DNA of 7,138 nt from a virus. Its lineage: Duplodnaviria; Heunggongvirae; Uroviricota; Caudoviricetes. A program made the translations under genes and the position numbers. This document shows, in pieces, positions 207 through 6,200 of this stretch; positions within the stretch are counted from its first letter, which is position 1, and each line of letters begins with the position of its first letter. Location: the IMG/VR virus record IMGVR_UViG_2711768034_000004. One strand, written 5' to 3'. Below the pieces are notes generated by a model, which was not told the origin of the DNA, did not search any database, and was given only the letters and a program-made list of their open reading frames with translations.

Positions 207-297
207 CTGTTCTCCAATGACTAGTCTAAAAACTAGTATTAAGACTATCACTTATTTAAGTGATATTGGTTGTCTGGAGATTCAGGGGGCCAGTCTA
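1..297 (-). mobile_element. IS2 insertion sequence, left-end portion (terminal inverted repeat plus start of orfA); element continues past window start
   Basis: Reverse complement of 1-297 reads TAGACTGGCCCCCTGAATCTCCAGACAACCAATATCACTTAAATAAGTGATAGTCTTAATACTAGTTTTTAGACTAGTCATTGGAGAACAGATGATTGATG..., which I recognise as the IS2 left terminus. Terminal CCAGTCTA lies at 290-297; flanking sequence changes character at 298. Confidence 0.88.
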
Positions 298-3119
298 GTT
301 AACGACCTGACAGTTATATCCTGATTCCATCCGGAAACAACAACCTGACTCCACGCTGTCCAGTTTCCATTAACAACAAAGCGAACGTATATACGTTTTG
401 TGTCGCTGTTAATCAGCGTTTGCATGTTCGCATAATCTGAATCCCTAACCTTACGAGTCGACTCTACACGGAGCAAAAAGTTACCGGCTATGCCGTCAGG
501 CTTATTGGTAATATTTGCACCACCTGCAGAGGATGGACAAATATAGTATTTAACTGCCCCGGCATCTGACTTGATGATGGTCAGGTTGTTAAGATTAACC
601 GTCTGGCCGTCAATGTTTTCCGGCTCGATGGCTCCTGCTATCCCGGCACTGAACGTAGCAACGGCTGAAAACGCTGTCGTACCTTTGAAAGCCAGTTGAC
701 CACCAATCGTTAATCCCTTGTCGAGTTTCGCTTGCGTGATCAATTTGCTGTTTTGTTTCTGATCAGGACTCTCACCAAAAGCCAGATCCCCATTAGTATC
801 AATTCCAAGATACTTTGGGTTCATGTTGTCTAACTTAAACCCAATGGACACATTTTCAGAAGAACCAGAACGCGTTAAAACCAACGGCGTGTGCTGTACT
901 CCATAGATGCTGAGCGTAGTTGCCGATGAGTCAGTGTCGGTATTTGCAATCTCAATCGTTCTGCTTTTAATTTTATACGCTACTGTGAGATCACGGACTT
1001 CAACCCTCCCGTCGTGACGAACAACAAGATCCCCTCCTGATGTCCCCCCTGCTGTCTTTGCCCTGATGCGAACTTCGCCAAGCGAATCAGTGTTAGGACC
1101 AGCATAGATTATGCCGCGCTCTGTGTTATCGCCAGTATAAAACCGCAAAGCGGTGACTCCACTGTCTGCCCGCAGGAAGACTGACGGTGTACCTTTTTTG
1201 ATTGTCAAGTCACAGGTCATTGTATCGCCGGTTTTTTTTACCTGCGCATCGTTCGTTACGTTGCCAAGTCCAACATCCGATTTCGACGGCTTGTTTGCCG
1301 AGCCGTATAGCTCATTGATGCTAAAAGTCCCGTTGTTAAGCCGGGCATCGTTGCCGGCATAGATCTTAATCTTCGCGGTTGAGTAGTCGATATTGATCGC
1401 TGACCACGTATCGCCGCACCGCGAGAATATACCAGAACCGTGGCTATAAATGGTCGCCGTGCTTCCGGTCGGCTTATCACCGCGCCAGAAATGACCACCT
1501 TTGTCACGCAGAGCTTTTAAGATCTCTACATCGCTCATCTTGCCGTTTGTTGATATCCCGCTACCGCCAAGACCGAAAGCGCCTGTAAGCATAGCATTAG
1601 AAAGACCCAAATCTGCTTTAGTCGGCTTGTTTAACTGGTCGTAAATCCTTACAACGGGGCTTTCAACATATCCAGAAGGCGCGGCGGTTTGCTTAACAAA
1701 TCCGTCTGGAATGTATAATTCCGTGCGTGCCGTCTGCGCCAGTACCGCAACCTTTGCGCCGTTGATAAATGCACGCTGGAAGGCCCAAACCTCAATAAAG
1801 CCATCATCTTTAACCAGGCCGTAACGCATTTGCATGCTATTGATTAGCCCGGTTGGCCCTAAACGGCGTATACTCAGGTAACGAGATACATTATCAGCAG
1901 TAAGCGAAGAAGGCAGACCGCGCGCCGAGATCTCGATAAAGTCAATGTTTCCGTAAGGGGAGCCGTAGTCACCGCCGTTAGTAACCATTAGCGTTACATG
2001 GCAATTGTTGCTTCCGGGATCGGAAAGTTTCGCGATCTTTATGTAAAAAGACTCATTACCAGTAACAACGGGCCAATCGTATTGCGTCATCGGGCTGACG
2101 AGTCCCCCGACCTTGTCGAGATATTCTTTCGCCTTGTTCTCTGACGCTTTAGCGTTGGTTTCGCTGACCTTTGCTGCTGACTCACTATTTTTCGCGTTGG
2201 TTTCTGATTTTTTGGCTGCTGTCGCGGAATTTGCCGATGCAGTTTGTGAGTCTGCTGCCGCCTGTGCGCTGTTATCCGCATTCATCTCAGACGTTTTTGC
2301 GGCCTTCGCGGAATTTCCTGCCGCCGTTGCCGAGGAAGCTGCACTGCCGGCGCTCGAGGCTGCGCTCGTTTCTGATGATTTTGCCGCCACTTTTGAAGCC
2401 GACGCATCCCGGGCTGAGGTGGCAGCTTCTGACGCTTTCGTGGTCGCGGTGGATGCAGAAGTGGCCGCAGATTTTTGTGATGCTGCGGCATTCGTTTCTG
2501 ACGTTTTCGCTGCACCGGCACTGGTGGCTGCCGCGCTTTTTGAAGACTCTGCAGCGGCAGCACTTTTTGATGCTTCAGTAGCCTTTGTTGATGCCGTTCC
2601 TGCGCTGGAAGACGCTGACTGAGCCGACGACGCGGCCTGTCCGGCTGACGTGCTGGCTGCGCGTGCGGAGTCCGCAGCATCAGTCGCATGGGTTGCCGCC
2701 TCACGGGCTGATGTGCGGGCATCACTGGCTGACTTCTTCGCGGCTGCCGTGTTCTGTGCCACTGCGGACGCGTTACGCGCCACCTCTTCCACCATCAGTT
2801 CAAAGCGGCGCAGTGCCTCCGGACGGACATCATCCTCCGTCATGGCACCGAGAAAATCATTCAGCGTACCCGGTTGTGAGTCTTCATACACGGTGATGGT
2901 CCCGGCATGCGATGGCGGGAAGCCTTCCACCAACAGAATAACGCTGTACTGACCGTACTCAACGTCCATGCTGTAACGCCCGGCTTCATCCGGGTTTTCT
3001 GAGGCCACTGTGTTCACCACCACCGTGGTGCTGTTGCGCCTGGCCTTTAGCTGAATGGTGCAGTTTTGTATCGGCTTACCTGCGCCATCTTTCAGTACAC
3101 CTGAAATCCGTACTGCCAT
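282..3119 (-). CDS. stf: Lambdoid side tail fiber protein (lambda Stf homolog), 945 aa as read; 3' end interrupted by IS2, which supplies the last 4-5 codons and the stop
   Basis: N-terminal ~110 aa (MAVRISGVLKDGAGKPIQNCTIQLKARRNSTTVVVNTV...GRYSMDVEYGQYSVIL...FPPSHAGTITVYEDSQPGTLNDFL) is near-identical to recalled lambda Stf (orf-401) N-terminus. This is followed by an Ala/Ser/Thr-rich repeat region and a ~600 aa distal domain. ATG at 3117-3119 is preceded by a G-run RBS. The ORF reads across the IS2 boundary at 297/298: ...VRSLT then RLAP-stop from IS2. Confidence 0.85.
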   Translation of the reverse strand: MAVRISGVLKDGAGKPIQNCTIQLKARRNSTTVVVNTVASENPDEAGRYSMDVEYGQYSVILLVEGFPPSHAGTITVYEDSQPGTLNDFLGAMTEDDVRPEALRRFELMVEEVARNASAVAQNTAAAKKSASDARTSAREAATHATDAADSARAASTSAGQAASSAQSASSSAGTASTKATEASKSAAAAESSKSAAATSAGAAKTSETNAAASQKSAATSASTATTKASEAATSARDASASKVAAKSSETSAASSAGSAASSATAAGNSAKAAKTSEMNADNSAQAAADSQTASANSATAAKKSETNAKNSESAAKVSETNAKASENKAKEYLDKVGGLVSPMTQYDWPVVTGNESFYIKIAKLSDPGSNNCHVTLMVTNGGDYGSPYGNIDFIEISARGLPSSLTADNVSRYLSIRRLGPTGLINSMQMRYGLVKDDGFIEVWAFQRAFINGAKVAVLAQTARTELYIPDGFVKQTAAPSGYVESPVVRIYDQLNKPTKADLGLSNAMLTGAFGLGGSGISTNGKMSDVEILKALRDKGGHFWRGDKPTGSTATIYSHGSGIFSRCGDTWSAINIDYSTAKIKIYAGNDARLNNGTFSINELYGSANKPSKSDVGLGNVTNDAQVKKTGDTMTCDLTIKKGTPSVFLRADSGVTALRFYTGDNTERGIIYAGPNTDSLGEVRIRAKTAGGTSGGDLVVRHDGRVEVRDLTVAYKIKSRTIEIANTDTDSSATTLSIYGVQHTPLVLTRSGSSENVSIGFKLDNMNPKYLGIDTNGDLAFGESPDQKQNSKLITQAKLDKGLTIGGQLAFKGTTAFSAVATFSAGIAGAIEPENIDGQTVNLNNLTIIKSDAGAVKYYICPSSAGGANITNKPDGIAGNFLLRVESTRKVRDSDYANMQTLINSDTKRIYVRFVVNGNWTAWSQVVVSGWNQDITVRSLTRLAP
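2130..2780 (-). repeat. Low-complexity Ala/Ser/Thr/Lys-rich repetitive segment inside stf (about aa 114-330)
   Basis: Translated segment AAAKKSASDARTSAREAATHATDAADSARAASTSAGQAASSAQSASSSAGTASTKATEASKSAAAAESSKSAAATSAGAAKTSETNAAASQKSAATSAS... consists of degenerate short periodic motifs, as in lambda Stf / T4 gp37-type fiber shafts. It generates several long spurious ORFs on the opposite strand and in other frames. Confidence 0.7.
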
Positions 3120-3183: not shown

Positions 3184-3384
3184 TCAGAATTTATAACCGA
3201 CACCCACGATGAAACCGTCAGTGCGCCAGTCACCACTGCCGGAACCTTCATAAGCAATATCAATGGCCACGGATTCGGTCGGGTTAAACTGCACGCCAGC
3301 CCCCCACGCCAGAGACGTGTTGCTGTGGCGACCGTCATCACTTCCGGTCAGCACATCGTGCGTTTTCCCCTTGTTGTCAGTTAG
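3184..3384 (-). pseudogene. lom: lom (Ail/Lom-family outer membrane protein) C-terminal fragment, about 65 codons, no start codon
   Basis: Minus-strand translation ends ...SLAWGAGVQFNPTESVAIDIAYEGSGSGDWRTDGFIVGVGYKF-stop (stop at 3184-3186), matching recalled lambda Lom C-terminus ...SVAWSAGIQINPAASVVVDIAYEGSGSGDWRTDGFIVGVGYKF. The frame is closed upstream by a stop at 3418-3420 with no ATG, so the N-terminal two thirds of lom are missing. Confidence 0.75.
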
Positions 3385-3829
3385 ACGGTCATGGCATCCA
3401 TGGCTGGCTGAAAATATTCACCGCAGTGCGGACATGGCCAGTACCAGCGGCGGCGGTCACCACGATTGTAAAGGGAAAGAATACCAGTCGTCGGTGGCGC
3501 TTCATGAGGCGACTTACGTCGCCATTTGCTGTCGCAGATGTCACGTCCCGGCGAGCTCTCCACCAGAGTCATCCCGGCGGACATAAATGTGGTGGTACGT
3601 TTTGAGGCCTGGGAGAAACCATCACCCTCGCTGTCGATATTCTCCGGAAAACGGTCGTAATCGGTTAAGGCGACAAACCGGTAACGGGGTTCCCCCTGAC
3701 AGTCGCAGCCACAGGAGTGTTGGCCGCGAGGAGCCGTTTTTTTACTGTGTCCCGGTGAAGCCCAAAGGCCTCGGCGATTTTAAAAACACTCCAGTAATAA
3801 GCATCACCGATCCCGCTCACATTTGACAT
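3381..3829 (-). pseudogene. Terminase / DNA-packaging gene remnant: Nu1-like (Noh) N-terminal HTH segment, frame-disrupted, continuing into a short gpA-like segment; truncated
   Basis: ATG at 3827-3829 with GGAG 6 nt upstream gives MSNVSGIGDAYYWSVFKIAEAFGLHRDTVKKRLLAANTPVAATVRGNPV..., stop at 3665-3667. The segment IAEAFGLHRDTVKKRL...RG resembles lambda Nu1 LADIFGASIRTIQNWQ...LRGGG. A second frame, open 3779 to 3381, continues sensibly: YRFVALTDYDRFPENIDSEGDGFSQASKRTTTFMSAGMTLVESSPGRDICDSKWRRKSPHEAPPTTGILSLYNRGDRRRWYWPCPHCGEYFQPAMDAMTV. Its CPHCGE and ESSPGRD...SKW..KS motifs resemble the lambda gpA region recalled as EGSPTFLGDKRIEGSVWPKS...ACPHCGEE. The two frames meet near 3680-3695, a G/C-run region. 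Confidence 0.5.
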
Positions 3830-4891: not shown

Positions 4892-5065
4892 CTAGATTAA
4901 ATCAATCTTGATATCATAGCTTTCAAGACCAGTCATTTTTTCCCGTGCAGTAAACTGGATACTGGTAACTTCTTTCCCGGTCTTTTTCTTAAGCTCAATG
5001 ATTTTTTTTGTTATATATTCAGAAATATCTGCTTCTGTTTTTGTTTTTAACTCTTCAATGTTCAT
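4892..5065 (-). CDS. gnsB: GnsA/GnsB-family protein (57 aa)
   Basis: MNIEELKTKTEADISEYITKKIIELKKKTGKEVTSIQFTAREKMTGLESYDIKIDLI matches the recalled GnsA/GnsB family (FTAREKMTGLESYD motif). RBS AAGAGGAA sits 6 nt upstream of the ATG at 5063-5065. The ORF-track version (88 aa, 4892..5158) uses an upstream in-frame start that I do not favour. Confidence 0.85.
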   Translation of the reverse strand: MNIEELKTKTEADISEYITKKIIELKKKTGKEVTSIQFTAREKMTGLESYDIKIDLI

Positions 5066-5237
5066 CATTTCCTCTTTTAGTCTGTTATGACTTTCCTGGT
5101 ACACAGTAGTGTCAATTATATGGAGCAAACGTATAAAAGATAAGATGAAACATCGCAATAATCAACATACGACGGTCTAAATTTCACACAAACAGATAAA
5201 GATGATTATCATTTATTATCAATGCATTAGAATCAAA

Positions 5238-5429
5238 TCAATTCAAGAGTCTCATTGCTGCTTCCAGAATTTCTTCTGAAGTTACATGTCGATCCGCTGC
5301 TACATAAATGACTTTATGATCTCCGGTCAGAGATGGAAACCCTGCAGCCATTACAGTGAGGTGTGTTGTTTCGCCATTTGGATATTCACGCATGATGGTG
5401 TTAACTCCGGTCATCACTGGCACTACCAT
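5238..5429 (-). CDS. Hypothetical small protein (up to 63 aa), ynfN-like by position in a Qin-type layout; start codon uncertain (in-frame ATGs at codons 1, 6 and 13)
   Basis: ORF MVVPVMTGVNTIMREYPNGETTHLTVMAAGFPSLTGDHKVIYVAADRHVTSEEILEAAMRLLN lies between gnsB and cspI on the same strand. GGAG is found 11 nt upstream of the third ATG only. Confidence 0.45.
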   Translation of the reverse strand: MVVPVMTGVNTIMREYPNGETTHLTVMAAGFPSLTGDHKVIYVAADRHVTSEEILEAAMRLLN

Positions 5430-5511
5430 TGCTGGTTCAGAGTTAAAAAAACTATTATTTTTTTCATAATGTTACCGTAATATGTGAGTATCCATCGACT
5501 AGACACTAAGC

Positions 5512-5531
5512 AAAAAAGCTCCCGAAGGAGC
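5512..5531 (-). terminator. Rho-independent terminator (minus strand) with UUCG tetraloop
   Basis: Plus strand A6 (5512-5517), GCTCC (5518-5522), CGAA, GGAGC (5527-5531). On the minus-strand RNA: GCUCC-UUCG-GGAGC followed by U6. It begins 9 nt after the stop of the 5540-5794 ORF. Confidence 0.6.
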
Positions 5532-5539
5532 CTTCATTT

Positions 5540-5755
5540 TCACTTTCTTAAATCTAACGATAGACGGCTAACATTTAAGTATTGTGAAATATTATCAAAT
5601 GTAATCATCATTGATTTACAAAAGATACATTTTGCCCCGAAAGGATTCCTGTCAGAAACATCAAAAGATGATGTTCTATACTGAGAACCATGGCAACACG
5701 GGCATCTAAAGTGAATATGGTTTGTAATATTTTCTACCTCAAAGTGCCACAACAT
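5540..5755 (-). CDS. Candidate Ogr/Delta-like zinc-finger protein (71 aa from ATG at 5755; 84 aa if TTG at 5794 is used), overlapping the 3' end of cspI
   Basis: Translation ...[46 protein letters not shown]... has a C-x2-C-x21-C-x2-C arrangement with a conserved RTS after the first Cys pair, resembling recalled P2 Ogr (CPLCQHAAHARTSRYITDTTKERYHQCQNVNCSATFITYESVQRY). A strong terminator follows immediately. Caveats: AT-rich region, start overlaps cspI by at least 17 nt, no clear RBS. Confidence 0.4.
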
Positions 5756-5951
5756 GAACAGCCGCGGGGCCTTTAGGTCCGTTCTCAATACCAAATTCGA
5801 CTTCCTGATTCTCAGTTAACGTTTTGAAATCGTTGCTCTGAATAGCTGAGAAATGGACAAACACATCTTTGCTACCATCTTTCGGCGTGATGAAACCAAA
5901 ACCTTTTTCAGGGTTAAACCATTTCACTAAACCAGTCATTGTGTTAGACAT
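5739..5951 (-). CDS. cspI: CspA-family cold-shock protein (70 aa), CspI-like
   Basis: [70 protein letters not shown] carries the cold-shock domain RNP motifs (KGFGFI, VFVHF) and is nearly identical to recalled CspI. The ORF track begins one Met earlier (5954). Confidence 0.9.
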
Positions 5952-6200
5952 CATTATTACCTTTTGAAGAAGTTAGCCCTTGGGCAGAATGATCCGAAAA
6001 AAATATCAGAGAGAAAAACCAAAAAGGAAATCTCAAGAGGTACAAATAATAAAATTATAACAATGACTGCTTCAGATAATTTTGTAACAAACCAGAACAC
6101 CATTAACGCATGATTAACCAACCATAGCAAGGATTACTTTTGTAAAGAAAAACACACGAATGAAACAATAGCTTTATTTATTAATAAAACGTGTCATTCT
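5952..6200 (-). promoter_or_regulatory. Long AT-rich 5' leader and promoter region of cspI
   Basis: About 250 nt of AT-rich non-coding sequence upstream of cspI, with ...CTTCAAAAGGTAATA-ATG similar to the cspA leader end (AAAGGTAATACACT-ATG). A possible cold-box-like AATGACACG lies near 6190-6200 on the minus strand. Boundaries are approximate. Confidence 0.35.

Follow-up and report, generated by a model that had tools for sequence, protein, structure and literature searches.

We find that the open reading frame (ORF) behind cspI in this 7,138-nt stretch of viral DNA, which as a whole we call the window, is ynfQ, a gene of the YmcF family that is already known and annotated. All evidence considered, it is very probably the Qin-type prophage copy of the ymcF family, forming the second cistron of a cold-shock transcript and encoding a Cys4 protein from an AUU start codon, and not an activator of late genes. 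The 84-aa translation matches the Pfam YmcF-like profile PF23641 from residue 23 (112 bits, E=1.5e-32) and the 62-aa product matches it at 113 bits along residues 1-61, covering profile positions 1-61 of 62; with a gathering score of 27 bits this places the window protein in the family over its full length at 112-113 bits. Identical DNA in RefSeq carries a 189-nt gene labelled ynfQ or ‘cold shock small protein YmcF’, a megablast search of complete E. coli genomes detects the locus in about 2,144 of 5,426, and in E. coli K-12 MG1655 the counterpart is b4724 ynfQ of the cryptic prophage Qin, where the gene order is cspI, ynfQ, ynfR, ynfN, gnsB. The ORF is thus neither hidden nor unannotated, and the opinion of the initial annotation that it is not a standard annotation gives way to the K-12 entry and to the 40 RefSeq E. 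coli records that we sampled evenly down the ranking, all 40 of which name the ynfQ locus as YmcF. Phage records are less complete, leaving ynfQ unannotated in 5 of 9, and PHROGs v4 holds no family for it; ab-initio gene callers miss or mis-start the gene there. As a discovery the ORF carries little weight, since the K-12 annotation, Pfam and thousands of RefSeq genomes already contain it. Its one unusual trait is the conserved AUU start codon, and what remains of interest is the tie between that codon and the csp stop codon, and the function of YnfQ.

The window protein shares 59 of 62 residues (95%) with K-12 YnfQ, from which it is separated by three substitutions (R27M, V54A and R61K, the second letter being that of K-12), and the layout of the two loci is the same, running from cspI through 10 nt, ATT and 62 codons to a terminator, with the same GAGG overlapping the cspI stop; ynfR differs, the window copy being truncated (Table 1). 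The chromosomal paralogue YmcF (b4723), encoded downstream of cspG, is 65-68% identical, has the same four cysteines and the same core motif of 35 protein letters, and like ynfQ starts at an ATT 10 nt past a csp stop, here within TAAGG, with a cspA-type leader upstream. What follows differs between the paralogues, since ymcF is overlapped by ymcE and then followed by gnsA with no intervening terminator, whereas behind ynfQ come a terminator, ynfR, ynfN and gnsB.

The initial annotation had allowed that the frame might be a chance ORF, and had proposed conservation and substitution pattern in related loci as a check. That comparison points to purifying selection on the protein and excludes a chance ORF: median pairwise dN/dS is 0.06 (866 informative pairs, first 45 codons) against about 2.0 for the other two frames of the same DNA, and variability is concentrated at third positions (entropy by codon position 0.35/0.22/1.20). 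Alignment A1, which brings together 34 proteins of diverse genera, has 19 invariant columns, among them C9, P10, C12, G14, S15, Q16, R18, S20, D23, P29, G31, A32, K33 and I35-K38, and the window protein, with its core F-[RK]-C-P-x-C-x-G-S-Q-Y-R-x-S ... N-P-x-G-A-x-C-I-F-C-K, has every one of these invariant columns. A 37-residue core of YnfQ is very highly conserved, the YmcF core motif persists in the most distant members, and the cysteines and core residues stay invariant in more than 20 genera. If the frame were nonetheless an accident of the AT-rich 3' UTR of cspI, the region would act only as RNA, as a 3' UTR or a 3'-derived sRNA. Two observations lean that way, namely that the Salmonella Rfam sRNA STnc220 takes in the final ~40 nt of ymcF together with its terminator (L020 2647..2726), and that the K-12 gene has no canonical start codon. 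However, neither the dN/dS of 0.06 with its third-position variability nor the invariance of the cysteines and core residues fits such a reading, an Rfam search of window positions 5380..5800 returned no significant match (best E=0.19), and an RNA role for the 3' end is in any case compatible with coding. Because of the substitution pattern we consider the chance ORF refuted as the sole explanation, and an RNA-only region next to inconceivable.

Extent of the gene and its start codon

The ORF list for the window gave an 84-aa frame (5540..5794, minus strand) with a TTG start and, within it, an in-frame ATG at 5755 that would yield 71 aa, and the ORF had been described as overlapping the 3' end of cspI. 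On comparison across loci, the conserved product is 62 aa (5540..5728) and not 71 or 84 aa, and the overlap belongs only to the two longer readings: the cspI stop and the ATT of ynfQ are separated by a gap of 10 nt, with no overlap between the conserved coding sequence and cspI, and the upstream extension is closed by stops in K-12 and many other loci. In K-12 a TAG lies directly after the upstream ATG, and from that stop to the first cysteine there is no ATG, GTG or TTG; at locus L004, whose 62-aa match is 100% identical to our query, a TAG closes the extension as well. Among the 66 loci with a non-ATG start, an ATG is found at -9 codons in 13 and a TTG at -22 in 3, and 26 have no canonical in-frame start whatever. 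Considering the conserved start column described below, the TAG codons of K-12 and L004, and the rarity of upstream ATG and TTG codons, we conclude that ynfQ does not overlap cspI. The K-12 frame is stopped just upstream, whereas in the window allele nothing closes it as far back as 5794; this misled the first reading, and the product to be annotated is that of 62 aa from the AUU rather than the cspI-overlapping ORF.

Table 1. Features of the cspI-ynfQ region, in window positions.
Feature	Positions	Strand	Basis
ynfQ CDS, 62 codons + stop, four-Cys YmcF-family protein	5540..5728	-	PF23641; RefSeq; K-12 b4724 of same extent; dN/dS 0.06
ynfQ stop codon, TGA	5542-5540	-	
Initiation codon, ATT (AUU)	5726..5728	-	conservation of start column; Pfam profile begins here
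cspI stop TGA + GG, giving the GAGG Shine-Dalgarno, 8 nt upstream of ATT	5737..5741	-	invariant columns, alignment A3
Upstream in-frame extension (TTG 5794, ATG 5755), outside the conserved gene; mostly cspI coding in another frame	5729..5794	-	
cspI, cold-shock domain protein, upstream cistron	5739..5954	-	Pfam CSD 1.7e-31; RefSeq cspI
cspA-type thermoregulator mRNA element: 5' leader + cspI CDS + first 36 nt of ynfQ	5693..6108	-	Rfam RF01766
Intrinsic terminator, stem GGCUCC/GGAGCU, UUCG loop, U6 tract	about 5512..5536	-	read from sequence; MFE hairpin
ynfR remnant, 12 codons, cut by TAG; 21 aa in K-12 b4749	5499..5537	-	K-12 comparison
First metal knuckle C9-P-C11-C12, putative ligands C9 + C12	5693..5704	-	C9, P10, C12 invariant in A1
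Second metal knuckle C34-I-F-C37 (putative)	5618..5629	-	C37 invariant, C34 nearly invariant in A1

It could be argued that this particular allele makes the longer 71-aa form from the ATG at 5755 inside cspI, given that the window frame is open to 5794 with that ATG in frame, and that some pipelines annotate forms of 70-71 aa, in Citrobacter and in a Caudoviricetes MAG (P0007-P0011). We find this very unlikely, however. The ATG arises incidentally where two csp codons meet (xAT-GTx), and the sole purine-rich match ahead of it, AAAGG, is 14 nt off. L004, identical over the 62 aa, has its TAG right behind that same ATG, conservation in the YmcF frame does not extend to the nine added residues, and the Pfam profile has its first position at the ATT.

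The start codon of the 62-aa product was followed through an alignment of 80 loci, one genome per species, to which the window and reference loci were added to give 84. The start column holds ATT in 62 of them, ATC in 4 and ATG in 18, and nothing else, and the same three codons account without exception for the 78 distinct enterobacterial loci. In 49 of these 78 the end of a csp gene lies 9-10 nt ahead of the start, and the start codon is ATT or ATC in 48 and ATG in 1 of the csp-adjacent loci, versus 12 and 17, respectively, of the distinct loci with no adjacent csp (Fisher's test, p=1.2e-8, a value that is indicative only because the loci are phylogenetically related). Moreover, TAAGG or TGAGG is found 7-8 nt ahead of the start in all 49 csp-adjacent distinct loci, and the TGAGG columns are invariant in alignment A3. 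This comparative evidence shows the AUU to be the conserved start, at which translation of ynfQ would begin 10 nt past the cspI stop, with the stop codon and the GG after it supplying the Shine-Dalgarno sequence. AUU is retained next to csp genes and is often swapped for AUG elsewhere; the lone csp-adjacent ATG locus is that of C. sedlakii, in which csp is frameshifted.

We found no conserved RNA structure that would hide the Shine-Dalgarno sequence or the AUU, as RNAalifold predicts no pairing there and a z-score of 0.13 is obtained for the single sequence. Any coupling to cspI would therefore be by proximity, that is by re-initiation, and not by unmasking. A csp-YmcF fusion made by frameshifting or readthrough was also considered and ruled out. 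In most loci 10 nt separate csp from the gene, but in Kosakonia the gap is 9 nt, which puts the gene in frame with csp, and a frame offset that varies in this manner between genera disfavours either kind of fusion.

Comparison with Ogr/Delta proteins and the predicted metal site

The initial annotation had read the ORF as a possible zinc-finger regulator of the Ogr/Delta type. The features that it named are indeed present in the translation, in which C-P-C-C, 21 residues and C-I-F-C make up the C-x2-C-x21-C-x2-C arrangement and Y-R-T-S contains the RTS motif, and the claim holds to the extent that this is a genuine gene for a four-cysteine, zinc-finger-like protein; the Ogr/Delta type does not hold. 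None of the 62-, 71- and 84-aa versions matches the Ogr/Delta profile PF04606 at E<=10 (gathering score 26.3 bits), and for the 84-aa translation, one of the two for which this HMM search had been proposed, PF23641 was returned in its place. As a positive control P2 Ogr, with a sequence 100% identical to annotated ogr genes, scores 76.9 bits on PF04606 (E=1.1e-21). In a nine-protein Ogr alignment (A2) the invariant cysteines are C4, C7, C30 and C35, corresponding to C-x2-C-x22-C-x4-C, and the second knuckle is an invariant Y-x-Q-C-x-N-x2-C where YnfQ has AKCIFCK, so the spacing of YnfQ is not that of Ogr.

To see in the window gene an Ogr/Delta-type activator, a lambdoid-prophage moron that would turn on phage late genes by contacting RNA polymerase, one would have to lean on the superficial pattern F-x-C-P-x-C ... 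R-T-S ... C ... I-T-[FY]-[DE], on the small size (about 60-70 aa) and four cysteines of both proteins, and on hhalign, which gives the YmcF profile 54.7% against P2 Ogr alone and 39.9% against an Ogr-family profile. Values of 40-55% are, however, the level expected between unrelated zinc ribbons, and when the two profiles are aligned their R-T-S residues are out of register by one. Apart from the failed profile match and the CxxC in place of Cx4C, there is no Ogr among the 50 BFVD fold matches listed and no Ogr-like member among the 42 clusters of the full-library HMM search. Context differs too: Ogr matches sit in Peduoviridae, whereas the window gene lies in a csp operon and not in a P2/P4-like late-control location, and the family is for the most part chromosomal, its members neighbouring cspG-type genes. 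P2 Ogr and P4 Delta thus share with YnfQ the small size, the four cysteines, the N-terminal F-x-C-P-x-C and an R-T-S-like stretch after it, but differ in second knuckle and genomic context, and YnfQ fails their family HMM. On the Pfam scan with its positive control, the spacing and the context, we reject membership of Ogr/Delta; that the gene is a late-gene activator of this type is highly improbable, and we give just as little credence to the family being a very distant Ogr-like, RNA-polymerase-binding finger. A very remote common zinc-ribbon origin with Ogr is conceivable but would carry no functional inference, and four cysteines plus R-T-S are not sufficient grounds to call an Ogr-type regulator.

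As an alternative we favour a Cys4 metal site of a more generic kind. An AlphaFold2 model of YnfQ, metal-free and built with the family alignment, shows a pair of short strands and a helix at the C-terminus (mean pLDDT 75, and 88-91 over residues 11-40). C9, C12, C34 and C37 are predicted to form two knuckles that together make a zinc-ribbon or rubredoxin-like metal site, ahead of the C-terminal helix. An HMM scan of 1.84 billion representative proteins yielded 42 clusters, all of them YmcF-like except for two spurious repeat proteins. In the most distant members C9, C12, C34 and C37 are kept, as is CIFCK in every one of them, while H13 and C11 (giving CPKC, CPTC, CPSC and others) are replaced, and we therefore predict the metal site to be Cys4. 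Fold searches with the model gave no significant match and only generic zinc-ribbon neighbours below threshold. Structure prediction had been proposed as a check for a zinc-ribbon fold, and its outcome is mixed, with a confident core but neighbours that are all sub-threshold. The top, non-significant fold and HMM neighbours (the TFIIE-alpha finger, ribosomal eL43 and the primase zinc-binding domain) are zinc ribbons in which, as predicted for YnfQ, a small pair of beta hairpins bears two CxxC knuckles.

The same four cysteines could instead hold iron, making YnfQ a redox-active protein (a rubredoxin-like Fe(Cys)4 or Rieske-like cluster) that serves in electron transfer and not a structural zinc ribbon. 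A review describes an AlphaFold-3 model of YnfQ with Fe2+ that ‘matches the rubredoxin topology’ (PMC13348028), and when the family profile was compared with the sequences of solved structures, a stretch of 12 protein letters locally resembled Rieske box II KFKCPCHGSQY (E=0.056, PDB sequences). But this similarity is not significant, Rieske box I (C-x-H) is absent, rubredoxin and Rieske Pfam matches were not found, and the conserved neighbourhood contains no redox partner genes. The box II resemblance itself was rejected, as H13 and C11 are not conserved and are replaced in distant YmcF members. An iron protein is accordingly unlikely in our judgement, though less so than the late-gene activator.

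The cspI transcript and a possible role of YnfQ

Rfam RF01766, the cspA thermoregulator, matches the cspI leader and coding sequence at 108.7 bits (E=8e-28, gathering score 78), and equivalents of this element precede csp-ymcF pairs in other genera. As the initial annotation had it, the ORF lies between the cspI stop and a UUCG terminator (GGCUCC-UUCG-GGAGCU and a U6 tract), and its view that the gene is probably co-transcribed with cspI likewise agrees with a single transcript unit from the RF01766 leader to the terminator, as judged from sequence. With this leader upstream and the terminator directly 3' of ynfQ, cspI and ynfQ make up one cold-shock-type transcript, in which leader, cspI, ynfQ and the hairpin follow one another and ynfQ is, by all sequence indications, the second cistron. 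Lying right behind a cspG/cspI-type gene in the same orientation, here at a 10-nt gap, is typical of the family, most members of which are chromosomal and lie beside cspG-type genes in more than 20 enterobacterial genera. The order csp, ymcF-like, ynfN-like and gnsA/B-like recurs in Escherichia, Citrobacter, Scandinavium, Yokenella and Trabulsiella, and in Raoultella a ynfN-like gene follows even where csp is missing. None of YnfQ, YnfN, GnsB and a 68-aa neighbour matched the PADLOC defence models.

Cold induction of ymcF and ynfQ was reportedly first described by Zhang et al. in Mol Cell in 2018. In transcriptome papers ynfQ appears as ‘Qin prophage, cold shock induced’, grouped with cspA/F/G/H/I (PMC11228462), and as co-regulated with cspG/H/I and ymcF (PMC11728337). 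Our search of the accessible literature returned no functional, metal-content or start-codon experiment on ymcF/ynfQ, and neither gene is mentioned in Nakahigashi 2016. Few small proteins of the enterobacterial cold-shock regulon are as conserved as YmcF and YnfQ, and we suggest, with low confidence, that YnfQ is an accessory zinc-ribbon protein of the cold-shock response, made from the cspI mRNA and binding nucleic acid, the ribosome or a Csp. That YnfQ would act in cold adaptation as a small factor associated with one of these is the weakest step of the proposal.

The start codon might offer a clue as to how such a protein is dosed. Ribosomes finishing cspI could re-initiate at ynfQ, or 30S subunits could bind the exposed Shine-Dalgarno sequence, and the weak AUU would then keep YnfQ at a fixed low fraction of CspI, tied to csp translation. 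A parallel is found in infC, whose AUU comes after the thrS stop and is used in about equal measure by initiation and by re-initiation (PMC3592434), and the AUU start of infC is phylogenetically conserved (PMC5499595). Like ynfQ, infC thus has a conserved AUU a few nt past the preceding stop, with a Shine-Dalgarno sequence; the infC codon serves autoregulation by IF3, whereas for ynfQ and ymcF a regulatory logic is only proposed here. Discrimination by IF3 against AUU has been reported to be weaker in the cold, and in vitro AUU mRNAs are poor competitors at low temperature (PMC5499595), the latter of which disfavours the AUU as a cold-specific enhancer. At present we can only advance as a tentative and somewhat doubtful proposal that the AUU behind a Shine-Dalgarno sequence built from the csp stop is a regulatory device, responsive to csp translation and IF3 fidelity, and that YnfQ is a zinc-ribbon partner of the Csp or ribosome machinery. 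If this were true, YmcF and YnfQ would be made only during Csp synthesis at low temperature, and the two would form a further AUU-initiated gene pair of E. coli beside infC and pcnB, the only ones counted in a 2017 paper (PMC5499595).

Some minor features were seen at the 3' end of the transcript. The terminator is flanked by an A-run, which would also permit termination on the opposite strand, and a pattern scan reported its stem (5518..5531) on the plus strand only. The ORF of the ynfR remnant passes through the terminator hairpin, and RefSeq labels an identical stretch ‘hypothetical protein, too short’.

Parallel gene order in the prophage and the chromosome

Taken as a whole, the prophage segment that carries ynfQ, a gene of the YmcF family, looks like a duplicated cold-adaptation module borne as a lambdoid moron cluster: its gene order, cspI-ynfQ-(ynfR)-ynfN-gnsB, parallels that of the chromosomal cspG-ymcF-ymcE-gnsA. 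Despite the RefSeq flag on ynfN, we find within it an intact ORF that matches phrog_3425 and phrog_4911. Moreover, across many genera a ynfN-like gene lies approximately 110-130 nt 3' of the ymcF-like gene, and this holds also for Raoultella loci where csp is not adjacent. Between ynfQ and ynfN of the window lies a remnant of ynfR, which starts 2 nt past the ynfQ stop and whose reading frame crosses the terminator hairpin. In the window allele a TAT-to-TAG change has shortened ynfR, and RefSeq labels the product 'too short'; among the records sampled, the truncated form occurs in E. coli records with 98-100% identity and the intact form in K-12-type records with 95% identity.

Features of the window and of the chromosomal counterpart
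Feature	Location	Strand	Remark
Prophage block cspI-ynfQ-(ynfR)-ynfN-gnsB	window 4892..5954	(-)	
ynfN	window 5238..5467	(-)	RefSeq flag 'frameshifted' on identical DNA
Intact ORF within ynfN	window 5238..5429	(-)	63 aa
ynfR remnant	window 5499..5537	(-)	12 codons here; 21 aa in K-12 (b4749)
Chromosomal block cspG-ymcF-ymcE-gnsA	locus L003, 1462..2241		
Tail-fibre ORF	window 282..3119	(-)	945 aa
Lom-like C-terminal fragment	window 3184..3354		after the tail-fibre ORF

Leaders, start codons and 3' ends of csp-ymcF loci

The cspA-thermoregulator match for cspI (window 5693..6108, (-)) scored 108.7 bits, clearly below the 159-177 bits obtained at five other loci (L003, L026, L037, L045 and L063) in a joint scan of mostly csp-ymcF-adjacent loci, and because of this lower score the prophage leader may have diverged. 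In Citrobacter sedlakii NBRC 105722 (L011, approximately 2240..2689) the csp frame continues in frame into ymcF, the start column of which reads ATG, the only ATG among csp-adjacent loci; this reflects either a frameshifted csp pseudogene or a sequencing error. The Klebsiella ymcF genes (L021, L030, L034 and L036; approximately 2470..2500) also start with ATG and have no csp gene within 700 nt. Considering that the segment directly 5' of their ymcF start, AATGTTGTAGCA, resembles the final csp codons (N-V-V-A), the sequence suggests that csp was lost by deletion and that the start codon was later altered to ATG.

At the 3' end, the Rfam sRNA STnc220 gave a 102-bit match in Salmonella enterica subsp. 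diarizonae (L020, 2647..2726) that spans the final ~40 nt of the ymcF coding sequence together with its terminator; this 'sRNA' could represent a csp-ymcF mRNA fragment from the 3' end. In the window, Rfam gave no corresponding match.

Phage annotation and the tail-fibre end

The ynfQ/ymcF gene is present in the lambdoid phages 2H10, mEp460_ev081, HannyBb, Tritos, PhiR63_1 and PhiR42_1, is unannotated in 5/9 of the phage records that carry it, and has no family in PHROGs v4. Other pipelines annotate forms of 70-71 aa (P0007-P0011) that start at an ATG inside csp. These missed or mis-started annotations are likely due to the non-canonical start. The name itself is ambiguous: in VanOrsdel et al. 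2018 (PMC6001520) 'ynfQ' denotes another protein than b4724, one of 37 aa that is encoded between ydfJ and ydfK and is identical to YnaM, and literature searches on the name return both proteins mixed.

At the other end of the window, the middle of the tail-fibre ORF is very long, repetitive and rich in Ala, Ser and Thr, and gives rise to numerous spurious long ORFs in the other reading frames. Beyond it (3184..3826) the Lom-like fragment is joined by terminase and DUF1441 fragments; RefSeq lists these as pseudogenes, and this region is therefore a decayed prophage junction.
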